Shown: positions 54,971-58,522 of the stretch, in pieces | Position numbering within the stretch: position 1 is the stretch's first letter | Layout of the letters: the number at the start of each line of letters is the position of its first letter | Origin: Clostridiaceae bacterium | GTDB lineage: Bacteria; Bacillota; Clostridia; Acetivibrionales; DTU013 | Direction: 5' to 3' | Length of the DNA: 64,000 bases | Assembly: GCA_012519745.1 (NCBI GenBank) | Contig: JAAYPO010000081.1 | Span: 5,096-69,095, forward strand | Notes under the pieces: model-generated | Seen by the model: the letters and a program-made list of their open reading frames with translations, nothing else | Database searches by the model: none | What the model was told of the DNA's origin: nothing | Made by a program: the position numbers and the translations under genes

Positions 54971-56428
54971 TTAGTATTTTAATTCAACAACAACCGTATC
55001 CTCGTACACAGTGATCCCGCTGACCACTGCTTCTGCCATCTCATGGGTCAGCTCGCCCCTGGAAAACATTGCTGCCGCAGCTTTCCCCAGTGTGATTAGT
55101 TCAGATGAGGAAGCATCTCTGGTCCTGTGGCTTTCCACCTCACCTTCCAGCAATGCCAGCCGTCTTTCCAGCTGCAGGTTCATCCTCTCAAACAGCTGCT
55201 CCGAGATCCTGCCCTCAAGCCTGTCTTTGTAAAGCAGTTCCTGCTGGCGCCGGCCGTATTCCAACTGGGTGCATATTCTCGAATATGCAGCAGTGCGTTC
55301 ATTACTGCCCTGTGATGCTATTCTCTCCTGCAATTCCAGTATCTCCTTGTTATCTTCAAACAACCCTGCCAGCTCGCGGCAAATAGGCGCCACGATATCA
55401 TCCTCATAGACAAAATGGCTGGAGCATACTGCCTTTCCCTTTCTGCAGTAATTACCGCAGACATATGCCGTACCATTCCTGCGTTTCCTGGCGTACATAG
55501 TGCTGCCGCAGTCACCACAGGTCATTATGCCGTTCAATATGTGCCGGCTTTTGTTCCGGCTGATCTTACTGCTGTTCCTTGCATTCCTGAGCCTTTGCAC
55601 CTCTTCATATGCTTCCCTGGATATGATGGCCTCATGAGTACCTTCTGTTATTACCCACTTCTCCTGCGGAAGCCTCCGTGTCTTTTTGCTTTTGAAGCTG
55701 ACCTTTTCACTGACTCCCTGTACCGTATCACCAATATATACGCGGGAACAAAGTATACGTCTGACAGTTATCCTGTTCCACCCCTCACCCCTCGGTGCGC
55801 CGTACCCTTTTTTTTCCAGATATTTCGAAATGGATGAATAACCATGACCGGATATATAGAGAGAGTATATTATCTTTACGATATATGCCTCGGCTTCATC
55901 TATGACCAGCTTGTTTTTTTCAATATCGGACTTTCTATATCCAAAGGGCGCCCTGCCTAAATACTCGCCCCTTTGTATCTTAAAGCGAAGGCATGCGCGT
56001 ATCTTTCTGGAAATATCACGCACGTACCTCTCATTTACCCATGTCTCGATGCCTACGGTGTCATTGTCCACAAGACTGTCATAACGTCCGTCTGCGGTCA
56101 AGAGCCTGACGCCGCACTCCTCGAGGTAATCTATCATCTGCAGTGTCTTGGCATTGTTCCTTCCCAGCCGCGAGAGATCCTTCAGCAGCACCAGATCGAT
56201 CCTGCCGGCGGATATATCCCTTTTCAGCCTGTCCAGACCTTCTCTCTCAAACGCCGACCCCGACACATTATCATCGACATAAATGCCGCAGATCCGGCCA
56301 AGCCGGTTTACAGACACATACTCCAGCAGCAGGTCCCTCTGGTTCTCGATGGACTCATGGTTTTCTCCGCTGTCATCTCTGCTTATCCTGACATAGATCC
56401 CTATATTGCTCTGTCTGCAGTTCCCCAT
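54971..56428 (-). CDS. Large serine recombinase (resolvase N-domain, recombinase domain, zinc ribbon, coiled coil; SpoIVCA/TnpX-like)
   Basis: IGIYVRISRDDS...NQ (catalytic Ser region), DLSRLGRN, GRAPFGY, and zinc ribbon CGDCG...CGNYC. The C-terminus ...TVYEDTVVVELKY resembles the SpoIVCA end. The likely start is MGNCRQ at 56428. Confidence 0.9.
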   Translation of the reverse strand: MGNCRQSNIGIYVRISRDDSGENHESIENQRDLLLEYVSVNRLGRICGIYVDDNVSGSAFEREGLDRLKRDISAGRIDLVLLKDLSRLGRNNAKTLQMIDYLEECGVRLLTADGRYDSLVDNDTVGIETWVNERYVRDISRKIRACLRFKIQRGEYLGRAPFGYRKSDIEKNKLVIDEAEAYIVKIIYSLYISGHGYSSISKYLEKKGYGAPRGEGWNRITVRRILCSRVYIGDTVQGVSEKVSFKSKKTRRLPQEKWVITEGTHEAIISREAYEEVQRLRNARNSSKISRNKSRHILNGIMTCGDCGSTMYARKRRNGTAYVCGNYCRKGKAVCSSHFVYEDDIVAPICRELAGLFEDNKEILELQERIASQGSNERTAAYSRICTQLEYGRRQQELLYKDRLEGRISEQLFERMNLQLERRLALLEGEVESHRTRDASSSELITLGKAAAAMFSRGELTHEMAEAVVSGITVYEDTVVVELKY

Positions 56429-56631
56429 TATATGATGCCCGCTCCCTGGTGCCGCGGGACACAAGCCTCAGCAGCTTCAGCCTGATATCTCCGGCTTTCT
56501 CCCTGCCGGTATGGCAGATCACGATCCTTTTTTGCCGTTTCCTTCTCCCATCCACAGTATGAGGCCTCCCATCAGCACTTCTGATATATGGTATATATAT
56601 ATTTCATGGTATTTGTCCATTAGAAATGATA

Positions 56632-56661
56632 TTGTTCATCTGTGCAGGAACGCTGTATAAT
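56632..56661 (+). promoter_or_regulatory. Sigma-A type promoter of the 103-aa ORF
   Basis: TTGTTC, an 18 nt spacer, then TATAAT, followed by RBS AAAGGAGGG and the ATG at 56692. Confidence 0.55.
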
Positions 56662-56691
56662 ATATCTATTCCGGAAAGGAGGGTGAGCAAT

Positions 56692-57003
56692 ATGTCCAGA
56701 GAGATCCCAAGCATGCTCATGTCATTTTTGAAAACAGCTTTACAGGATGTGGACGATGGTTACGAATACGCCTCGGAATTGAACAGGATCCTTAATTCGG
56801 ATGATTGCCAGGCAGCGCTGTCTCCGAAGGAAATAGATGCCCTTCGGGAATATGCGGATGAGGTGAAAAAGGTAGGCGAGATAAATTACTATTCCACAGA
56901 GAGGATCCGGGAAATCGAGAAGGAGCACTTCGGCGAAAGAGGCATCCCCGGTTATCTGAAGGCTGATCACGGACAGCCGGAAAAACCCGTCTGGCCGTTC
57001 TGA
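56692..57003 (+). CDS. Small acidic hypothetical protein divergent from the recombinase
   Basis: Strong RBS (GGAAAGGAGGG, 8 nt spacing) and its own promoter. 103 aa. No family recognised. Confidence 0.6.
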   Translation: MSREIPSMLMSFLKTALQDVDDGYEYASELNRILNSDDCQAALSPKEIDALREYADEVKKVGEINYYSTERIREIEKEHFGERGIPGYLKADHGQPEKPVWPF

Positions 57004-57004
57004 A

Positions 57005-57400
57005 GCAGGCGGTGACAGGCAGAGGGTCGGTACGACATTCGGACTACAGCAAACATGCGGAAGGCCGGTACTGCATTCAGACATCTGGAACTGGAACAGG
57101 CGGAGGGCCGGTACTGCATTCAATGACTGCAAGCGTTACAGATGCTTCGGTATCACGCAGTTCAAATGAGGCACCAGGCACCACAACCTGCGGCACGGAT
57201 GCCGCAGGCGCTGCGTCCGAGCCACGGATGGCGAGTGACCAGCGCCCTCATTTGAGCAAGTGATGCCGATTAGCAGATGTTCGCGAAGCAGTCTGAATAC
57301 AGTACCGGCCCTCCACCTGTTCTGAAGAAGTCCGGCTGTCGTACCGGCCTTTCGCCTGTCTGCTGCAGTCCGGCCGCAGTACCGGACTGTGGTCGGATCG
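57005..57400. repeat. About 400-bp nested inverted-repeat structure with phased CGGTAC motifs
   Basis: CGGTAC at 57028, 57066 and 57109. The complement GTACCG at 57302, 57341 and 57379 (38-43 bp phase). The arms are mutually reverse-complementary. Inner palindromes include CCTGCGGCA-cgga-TGCCGCAGG (57187-57208) and TCAAATGAGG/CCTCATTTGA. Confidence 0.85.
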
Positions 57401-57406
57401 TCTGCT

Positions 57407-58522
57407 TTATTTGAAAAAGCTTTTCAGCTCGTACATGCCCCACCTGCACTGCAGGTATTTGCCTGCGAGGGCTTTATCAAGCAGCGATTCATGCATGCAC
57501 AGCGATGCTGCAAATGAACGCTTATCAATAAGCTTCAGCGCCTTTGGCCCCTCTCTGAAAAACTCTCTGCGGCATTCGCATATTTTCTGGGCTATAGCAA
57601 AAATGATATCCTCACGCTGCTCCAGGCATTTGATCAGCCACACTGCCCTGCTCAGCAGATCCCTCAGTTTAACACCGCCCTCCTCCCCGTCCAGAGATGA
57701 CTTGACTGCAAATGCTTCAGATATGCAAACATTCGGAAAAGCTTCCCCATTGTATATCACATGAATATCTCCTCTGGTATCCCGGACCATTATATCCGGC
57801 AGTGCACGATTTATCGGCACATTGCTGCAATACTCCCGTCCGGGTATAGGCTCAAGGCTTTTGACCTTTTTAAAGGCCTCCCTGACACGGTTGATGGTCA
57901 ATCCCGTAGCACCTGCCACATATTGGGCATCATCATCGGCGACTGCATTCAGGTAACCGTCCACCACAAGCATGGCGTCAAAATCCTGCCGCTCCATCTG
58001 TTTGAGCTGGATCAGCAGGCACTCCTTCAGATCCCGTGCACATATCCCCGGAGGATCCAGTGACTGCAGTTCCTCCAGCACATCGAGCACCAGGGTCTCC
58101 GGAACATTGAAAAAAGCAGCTGTCTCAGCAATATCAGCTTTCAGATAGCCATTTTCATCCGTGTTGTCTATAAGGAATTCTCCGATACTGTAGCTGGTCT
58201 TGTCGGGACATAACGCTTCAAATTGCAGCAAGAGATGCTGCTTGAGCGAAAGGATCCTTTCCGGTGCTTCTATTACATGATCGTTGATCTGGGAATCATT
58301 TTCATAATCGTTTGTATATGCTGTGTACACATCAGCATATGATCCTGCCAAAGCAGCTTCATCCGGTGCTCCTTCAAGTACGGGATTGGTTTCGAGCTGG
58401 TTTTCGATGTATTGGAAAAGTTCGCCGGAGTTCATTTCAAGTATTTCGATGGCCTGCTTCAGTTGAGGTATGAGCAGAAGCTTCTGTGAACGTACATGGC
58501 TGAAGTCAAAATTATACTCCAA
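57407..58522 (-). pseudogene. rpoN: RNA polymerase sigma-54 homologue lacking the C-terminal RpoN-box segment (truncated or split)
   Basis: Region I: LIPQLKQAIEILEMNSGELFQYIENQLETNPVLE. Core-binding region: ..LDPPGICARDLKECLLIQL. HTH: MHESLLDKALAGKYLQCRWGMYELKSFF. The stop follows immediately. About 65-75 aa, including the RRTVAKYR-type RpoN box, are absent. Confidence 0.65.

Follow-up and report, generated by a model that had tools for sequence, protein, structure and literature searches.

An enlarged, invertible TwoAYGGAY-like palindrome between convergent genes in a Clostridial genome

What is a palindrome of almost 400 nt doing between the stop codons of two convergent genes? The question is raised by a 64,000-nt stretch of contig JAAYPO010000081.1 from a Clostridiaceae bacterium (assembly GCA_012519745.1; hereafter, the window), in which positions 57005–57400 (hereafter, the block) separate an open reading frame (ORF) of 103 amino acids (aa) on the plus strand from a truncated rpoN gene (hereafter, rpoN') on the minus strand. 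An earlier note on this DNA had described the palindrome and listed several possible roles for it, with a binding array for the neighboring serine recombinase as its lead idea. Our analysis covers the block and a set of comparison loci (designated by L numbers), and all coordinates are positions within the window unless a comparison locus is named. Based on sequence comparisons, we identify the block as an enlarged local copy of a TwoAYGGAY-class palindromic hairpin element, and its functional part as the 170-nt centre, a long closing stem tipped by two hairpins (H1 and H2). The block is real, and it is more than a terminator.

The block is a long imperfect palindrome with three units of 38–43 nt in each arm, and every sequence feature of the earlier description, including the GCTTCG/CGAAGC pair, is present in place. 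CGGTAC occurs at 57028, 57066, and 57109, and GTACCG at 57302, 57341, and 57379; the block starts 2 nt past the TGA of the 103-aa ORF (57001–57003) and ends 7 nt short of the rpoN' stop codon (57407–57409). The left arm (57005–57124; repeat family D1) comprises units at about 57014–57051, 57052–57094, and 57095–57124, which the repeat search reported as three direct units at 57014, 57052, and 57095 (spacing 38 and 43). The right arm (57294–57400; family D2, inverted pairs I1–I5) mirrors them with units at about 57294–57322, 57326–57360, and 57364–57400 (direct units at 57282, 57321, and 57359 in the repeat search); no strand applies to either arm. Inverted-repeat pairs link the arms at 75–93% complementarity, and the GC content is raised as the earlier note had suggested (0.565–0.615 in the block vs. 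0.40–0.525 in the flanks). The unit consensus, ACAGGnGGAAGGCCGGTACnGCATTCAGACT (about 32 nt, drawn from 28 units in seven genomes), has no internal dyad beyond CCGG/GTAC. The motif GGCCGGTAC, with at most one mismatch, is found 16 times in the window against 5.5 expected (i.e., 3-fold), and six of the 16 occurrences lie within the block. When folded as RNA, which the earlier note had recommended as a check, a 416-nt stretch reached −245 kcal/mol on the plus strand and −236 kcal/mol on the minus strand, compared to about −151 ± 5.5 kcal/mol for shuffled controls (z = −16), with none of 100 shuffles being as stable.

The centre (57125–57293) is 170 nt long, has its sense on the plus strand, and was assigned as TwoAYGGAY-like with an extended closing stem (P1) on the basis of an Rfam match, a covariance model, and conservation. 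The sole relevant match of the Rfam scan (E-value mode) was TwoAYGGAY (RF01731) at 57145–57271 on the plus strand (32.8 bits, E = 0.016), and the alignment places both ACGGAU hairpins, with 57195–57200 and 57224–57229 at their tips, as well as the closing stem. A purpose-built covariance model, R1, scores the centre at 122 bits. On the plus strand, H1 (57187–57208) reads CCUGCGGC-ACGGAU-GCCGCAGG with the GGA-containing loop at 57195–57200, and corresponds to the perfect hairpin CCTGCGGCA-cgga-TGCCGCAGG noted earlier, whereas H2 (57209–57245) has a GCC-ACGGAU-GGC apex (57221–57232; loop 57224–57229) above a tandem G.A internal loop and a lower stem. Both hairpins are enclosed by the inner P1 stem (57162–57255; inverted pair I15), in which the previously noted palindrome half TCAAATGAGG (57162–57171) pairs with CCTCATTTGA (57246–57255), and the pairing runs outward to 57005/57400. 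The original description of TwoAYGGAY (Weinberg et al. 2010, PMC2864571) gives it a pair of AYGGAY loops and calls its P1 "often very large"; it has no established function, and a 2025 preprint still terms the motif "relatively unexplored". The block resembles this RNA in its two AYGGAY-loop hairpins (ACGGAU twice), the tandem G.A internal loop in one of them, the very large P1, the distribution over Clostridia and Gammaproteobacteria with several copies per genome, and the lack of a fixed relation to neighboring genes. It differs in having a P1 of about 190 nt per side, which includes arms built of tandem 40-nt CGGTAC-core units (1–3), and a core that is inverted between close relatives, neither of which has been described for the family.

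Conservation and covariation indicate constraint on the centre. Among six genomes (the window and five relatives) the 170-nt centre is 91–96% identical, while the synonymous divergence (dS) of the adjoining rpoN' against the same genomes is 0.61, 0.89, and 1.12. In the six-genome alignment, both partners have changed in a compensatory manner at seven pairs of the inner arm stem, and across 13 Clostridial copies nine of 27 pairs are compensatory, located in P1 and the H2 lower stem (e.g., A-U to C-G and U-A to C-G in the inner P1). One-sided changes gave sense-strand G.U in 16 cells vs. A.C in five, and one U.G pair is kept in all six genomes. Folding of the 180-nt core favors the sense over the antisense strand in 22 of the 25 copies compared (mean difference, 6.6 kcal/mol), and invariant positions of the 13 Clostridial copies cluster in H1 and the H2 apex, with a joining region of variable length. 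This agrees with a structure that is single-stranded and strand-specific and in which the tip is what counts; we consider the evidence for it moderate, since few sequences were compared and these are related to each other. As far as the alignments go, they show an apex under constraint while the arms turn over yet stay complementary. Hence the "long structured RNA" among the earlier proposals gained support from the TwoAYGGAY-like centre, the covariation, the wobble and folding bias toward the sense strand, and a conservation far above that of neighboring synonymous sites.

Syntenic comparison loci were gathered through the many orthologues of the recombinase of the window. These loci conserve the order CAAX protease, rpoN, 103-aa ORF (convergent), recombinase, diacylglycerol kinase, and spoIVA down to about 50% recombinase identity. 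Among 27 syntenic loci surveyed, the block was present only in a close clade, and the others carry simple hairpins or unrelated spacers; in most loci a plain hairpin of 44–100 nt or unrelated sequence fills the space from the rpoN stop codon to that of the 103-aa ORF. The same spacer without the element (L004 4183–4258; L048, L051, L091, and L267) contains unrelated hairpins, mostly without a U run, and the L004 hairpin has a perfect 31-bp stem. The position between the two stop codons seems to turn over hairpins rapidly.

These spacers bear on whether the block is only an overgrown bidirectional terminator, or an RNA-stabilizing hairpin for the convergent genes, with GGA loops of no specific role. 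Plain GC-rich hairpins of 40–70 nt in the same spacer of relatives agree with this explanation, as do the extreme stability of the block on both strands and a terminator-like site on the plus strand, where a hairpin at 57368–57398 is followed by CGTCTGCTTTATTTG (the outermost right unit is also a local hairpin, followed by TTTATTT); the minus strand has no adjacent U run. However, termination needs neither a 170-nt apex at 91–96% identity nor two invariant GGA loops that are common to the copies of another phylum, and the plain hairpins of relatives vary freely in sequence, whereas the centre does not. We therefore hold termination alone to be quite improbable. The "elaborate bidirectional terminator" suggested earlier is plausible as a secondary role, given the plain hairpin at this position in most relatives, but not as a whole account.

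Among the genomes that carry the element, both the number of units and the orientation of the core vary. The window and L125 have three units per arm, L044 has two, and L003 has one, all with the core oriented as in the window, an orientation also found in L128–L130 and L133 (two units on the one assembled arm). The core is inverted relative to the window in L001, L002, and L030 (two units per arm), in L134, L135, and L137 (one unit per arm), and in L127, which is asymmetric (1–2 units in one arm and three in the other). An "empty site", meaning a CGGTAC hairpin without the centre, was sought in the nearest outgroups (L004, L267, and L268), which showed unrelated hairpins only; the derivation of the arm units from an ancestral terminator stem accordingly stays speculation.

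The invertible segment spans about 227 bp (57095–57322), comprising the inner unit pair and the centre, and occurs in either orientation among close relatives. When L044 was compared to L001, these 227 bp aligned on opposite strands at 96%, whereas the outer unit and both gene flanks aligned on the same strand; strand calls by R1 agree with the alignment in showing the segment inverted in L001, L127, and L134 with respect to the window, L003, and L044. Similarity of the centre is independent of orientation (L044 is nearest to the inverted L001 at 96.5%, and the centre of the window is equally close, at 95.3%, to those of L003 and the inverted L134), and therefore more than one inversion has occurred. 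Over 5 kbp, the flanks of L127 and L128 share 99.1% identity, but their cores are oriented oppositely and their arms are very different. Within each strain group, independent assemblies agree in orientation (window/L125; L001/L002/L030; L134/L135/L137; L128–L130/L133).

Such a segment invites comparison with hin/hix, fimS, the RecV switches of Clostridioides difficile, and gut invertons, where inverted repeats enclose a short segment that occurs both ways round, with a recombinase gene nearby. In a programmed inverton, site-specific recombination, perhaps by the large serine recombinase (LSR) next to the block, would flip the 227-bp core and so choose which of the convergent transcripts carries the sense RNA. 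Inverted repeats of about 28–45 bp do bound the flipped segment, both orientations exist among close relatives without coupling to sequence similarity (including the two strains with 99.1% identical 5-kbp flanks), the recombinase gene lies 0.6 kbp away, and Logan contigs repeatedly end in the core. Nevertheless, all independent assemblies show one orientation per strain group, with no within-strain mixture seen among them; the segment is intergenic and has neither a promoter nor a coding junction (no sigma-70-like promoter was found in 56400–57700); the units lack the dyad of serine-recombinase sites; and the recombinase and its neighborhood are kept in many genomes without the element. Rare recombination, or template switching within a long hairpin, could also produce a few inversions over a dS of about 1. 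We consider the programmed inverton improbable, and the flips look more like rare recombination or template switching between the arms than a fast switch, a preference based on the agreement of assemblies within strain groups and on the missing promoter. The 227-bp core has inverted several times in evolution, probably by recombination between the arms, and where it is flipped (L001-type genomes), the sense RNA would come from the rpoN' side.

Two further observations concern the core. Logan contigs from several samples (L125, L128–L131, L133, L135, and L137) repeatedly stop inside the 170-nt centre, near H1 or the H2 loop and not at repeat boundaries, which could reflect strain variants, mixed orientations, or low coverage. 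An 83-aa ORF at 57012–57263 was rejected as coding because the inversion and the changes in unit number destroy it in relatives.

The centre is not confined to this locus. An exact search of a reference genome collection with the H1 20-mer returned 39 stretches, about 24 of which are true copies (H2 and closing stem present) from Clostridial and gammaproteobacterial genomes. Five copies were found in Ruminiclostridium MnB_11 (several of them at contig ends), three in OH_SBB_121, two in SRP192927_co8_254, and, on the gammaproteobacterial side, five in a single metagenome-assembled genome (MAG). In Clostridia, the copies form sharply bounded palindromes of about 330 nt, set in unrelated flanks. 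The pair in SRP192927_co8_254 is 98% identical with different flanks within one MAG, which indicates recent mobility. The window holds a single copy, and an R1 scan of about 0.8 Mbp of related loci revealed no copies beyond those reached via the H1 20-mer. BLASTN of the block yielded zero matches in either the phage or the plasmid collection, and scans of viral contigs returned one match to the H1 20-mer, coding and unrelated, and 120 single matches to a degenerate unit pattern that were chance-like. The 20-nt hairpin CTGCGGCACGGATGCCGCAG is identical in copies from two phyla (L009–L035 vs. the window and L008–L044), while the rest of the element differs, which may reflect horizontal spread or a very strong constraint on H1; as a caveat, the copies were collected by searching for that exact 20-mer. 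In Ruminiclostridium MnB_11, some copies carry an interruption of about 65 nt directly behind CCCGCATT (L016 87–160; L006 and L039 at contig ends), which has its own perfect hairpin (ATACTACATCGCT...AGCGATGTAGTAT) and resembles an insertion nested in the repeat.

A selfish mobile repeat without host function is the main rival explanation. The element would then be a non-autonomous palindromic repeat similar to REP sequences or miniature inverted-repeat transposable elements (MITEs), with the arms as terminal inverted repeats, H1 and H2 recognized as single-stranded DNA by a trans-acting transposase or recombinase, and the conservation due to recent spread instead of host selection. A dispersed multi-copy family with sharp boundaries and unrelated flanks agrees with it, and so do the 98% identical pair within one MAG, the copies at contig ends, the absence of coding capacity, and the inconsistent orientation to neighboring genes; in addition, one copy adjoins an IS4-like transposase ORF. 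ERIC/IRU, Correia, RUP, BIME/REP, and other MITEs are likewise intergenic imperfect palindromes of 100–400 bp, often 3' of genes and co-transcribed, that are multi-copy and non-coding and have size variants arising by internal insertion or duplication. Unlike these, the element showed no target-site duplication at the aligned boundaries of the co8_254 copies and no partner transposase: no gene family recurs beside the copies, whose flanking genes are ordinary. Conservation is highest at the apex and not at the termini, and the window has only one copy. Moreover, all relatives that have the element at this locus have it in synteny, and it was therefore inherited in place, yet its centre is 91–96% identical at a dS of 0.6–1.1. 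The mobile repeat accounts for dispersal and random orientation, but not for the in-place conservation or the wobble bias toward one strand; we judge it unlikely, although it deserves to be taken seriously.

The 103-aa ORF (56692–57003, plus strand), whose transcript would enter the block, is 58–89% identical in relatives. Its family numbers about 173 proteins, is confined to Acetivibrionales-like Clostridia, and is always convergent to rpoN and upstream of the recombinase; it is better conserved than the recombinase (89% vs. 72% in L004). No family was found for it in Pfam, NCBIfam, or PHROG, the best PDB sequence match was not significant (E = 0.11), and its confident, all-helical AlphaFold model (predicted local distance difference test score, pLDDT, 82.6) had no match in the PDB by Foldseek. 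A Joint Genome Institute label, "MazG superfamily", on some members of the family could not be confirmed.

The convergent rpoN' (57407–58522, minus strand) encodes 371 aa, ends ...YELKSFFK, and is without the RpoN box. The stop that the earlier note had called that of rpoN is thus correctly positioned, but it closes a truncated gene in which the last ~72 codons are missing; profile matches cover positions 5–88 of 160 in Sigma54_DBD and 2–363 of 434 in TIGR02395. Its dN/dS of 0.08–0.15 indicates that the truncated gene is under purifying selection. No RpoN box was found in the window, nor was the 3' half of rpoN found within 57 kbp, and among the loci this half occurs only in seven with intact rpoN (five distinct sequences), which in some relatives adjoins the 103-aa ORF. 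The cut falls at the same codon (...ELKSFF) in L001–L004, L045–L096, L139, L267, and L268 (rpoN identity 38–83%), always beside an orthologous large serine recombinase. Three C-terminal RpoN fragment proteins were examined, of which two proved to be adjacent two-ORF splits in other lineages and one a true orphan half. The orphan (L265 5990–6240; 78 aa with RpoN box) starts right after an in-frame stop (...TGA TTG AGA TAC TTT TTC CCA), with molybdenum-cofactor genes ahead of it on its own strand; it has an AGATAYTTT core in common with the truncated rpoN end of L083, which, as read from the sequences, fits a split gene with a common crossover core at the YFF codons. In the unrelated lineages L262 (4827–6240) and L266 (4840–6246), where rpoN lies by gap-pgk-tpi, the gene is present as two adjacent ORFs (379–390 and 79–81 aa) split at the same ELKYFF codons within a T-rich run; a frameshift hot spot may be responsible, or an error in the assembly.

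The large serine recombinase itself (54971–56428, minus strand; Resolvase, Recombinase, and Zn_ribbon_recom domains) is context here and appears not to act on the block. In the lead idea of the earlier note, the block would be an att-like end or an accessory-protein array for this enzyme. It does abut the rpoN truncation point (57407), a plausible recombination junction, the orphan rpoN 3' half elsewhere has the same YFF-codon core, and six phased units resemble multi-site transposon ends. On the other hand, many genomes that lack the block keep the recombinase, the 103-aa ORF, and an identically truncated rpoN' side by side, the units vary from one to three per arm and are asymmetric in L127, and the core belongs to a generic intergenic repeat family found away from recombinases, an outcome that the earlier note had named as contrary to its own proposal. 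Since LSRs require just two short dyad sites (PMC12286644), and the units lack a dyad of their own, are variable and asymmetric in number, and are absent from orthologous systems, the att array is not supported, and we regard it as very remote. We also found no evidence for a replication or single-strand origin remnant, another of the roles suggested earlier.

The arrangement around rpoN' is nonetheless reminiscent of the LSR-excised elements skin/SpoIVCA, SPbeta/SprA, and gin in gerE (PMC5595907, PMC5499854; rpoN is not named among the interrupted genes in their titles and abstracts), in that an LSR lies beside a gene that is cut at a fixed codon and is under purifying selection. It differs in that core genes (dnaE, typA, a penicillin-binding protein, and spoIVA), and not a prophage, lie on the recombinase side of the window, and in that the 3' half is not found nearby. 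The likeness concerns the neighborhood and not the block, as the palindrome is dispensable for the arrangement. The recombinase may restore the sigma-54 gene; the junction of such an event, if real, would lie at about 57385–57430, beside the block and not within it.

What, then, might the centre do? Our preferred reading, to which we assign about even chances of being right, is that the block is a transcribed 3' untranslated region (3'-UTR) hairpin that presents two CsrA-type GGA loops and serves also as a terminator, with arms that grew by tandem duplication and a core that flips by recombination between them. Because the sense strand of the motif is the plus strand, the element would be carried at the 3' end of the 103-aa ORF mRNA, where the RNA would fold as a rod of about 400 nt that stops or stabilizes both convergent transcripts. 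The three CGGTAC units per arm would be tandem duplications of a unit of about 40 nt, and compensatory change or gene conversion would have kept the arms complementary. H1 and H2 both read C-ACGGAU-G, with CACGGAUG present twice and the GGA motifs 29 nt apart. The H2 loops of the gammaproteobacterial copies read UACAGGGAUGU, an exact match to the CsrA consensus from systematic evolution of ligands by exponential enrichment (SELEX; RUACARGGAUGU with GGA in a hairpin loop, PMC4347634), to which the loops here are very close. RMfam (2014) had already proposed CsrA binding for the TwoAYGGAY family (PMC4333381). The loops may thus bind or titrate a CsrA/Rsm-type dimer. As to spacing and loop sequence, a CsrA dimer reportedly bridges sites 10–63 nt apart (work of Mercante et al. 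in 2009), and RsmE is said to bind an ACGGAU hexaloop in hcnA (Schubert et al. in 2007). A two-site platform of the CsrA type is favored because both loops closely match the CsrA/RsmE consensus at a bridging distance.

The element has in common with CsrB/CsrC/RsmY/RsmZ and with mRNA CsrA sites the GGA in a hairpin loop, the CAnGGAUG core, and two sites that a dimer could bridge. However, there are two sites here compared to 7–22 in CsrB or RsmZ, and unlike CsrA-sequestering RNAs, the element bears them on a very long stem in a 3'-UTR position and is dispersed and repeat-like. To our knowledge, no CsrA-titrating RNA has been established in Firmicutes, where FliW is the known antagonist. It is also conceivable, although highly improbable in our view, that a programmed switch, in which a recombinase (possibly the adjacent serine recombinase) flips the 227-bp core, appends a CsrA-type titrating hairpin to the mRNA of either the 103-aa ORF or rpoN', with the CGGTAC units as recombination or accessory sites at the edge of a sigma-54-restoring segment.

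Several points weigh against the CsrA-type 3'-UTR hairpin that we prefer. The Rfam score of 32.8 bits is below the RF01731 gathering score of 43, and in gathering mode the block had no match; of 18 related loci, only the Alteromonas copy (L028, 44.4 bits) exceeded the threshold, so the Clostridial copies are a sub-threshold variant of TwoAYGGAY. The wobble-bias counts are drawn from six related sequences only. No csrA gene is present in the window or in 1.06 Mbp of comparison loci. Across the family, orientation to flanking genes is inconsistent, contrary to what a pure cis role in the 3'-UTR predicts. Our reading does not account for the multi-unit arms, which were not found in the other Clostridial copies, though those have long arms as well, and the units (a 32-nt conserved motif, three per arm) might just as well serve to bind a protein on double-stranded DNA.

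The block is a new, enlarged, and invertible form of a known orphan motif. If it is merely a selfish repeat or a terminator, the finding is an ordinary one. TwoAYGGAY has been an orphan since 2010, and this locus renders the motif testable in four ways. The same copy can be traced through a syntenic series of genomes to a dS of about 1. For the family, Clostridial TwoAYGGAY copies turn out to be palindromic repeats of 300–400 nt, some of which were recently mobile, and flips of the core in place may explain why the family has no fixed orientation to its neighbors. The match of the loop sequences suggests a CsrA-type protein as a concrete candidate partner. If such binding is true, the element would be, as far as we know, a rare CsrA-titrating RNA of Firmicutes that is carried on a repeat element.

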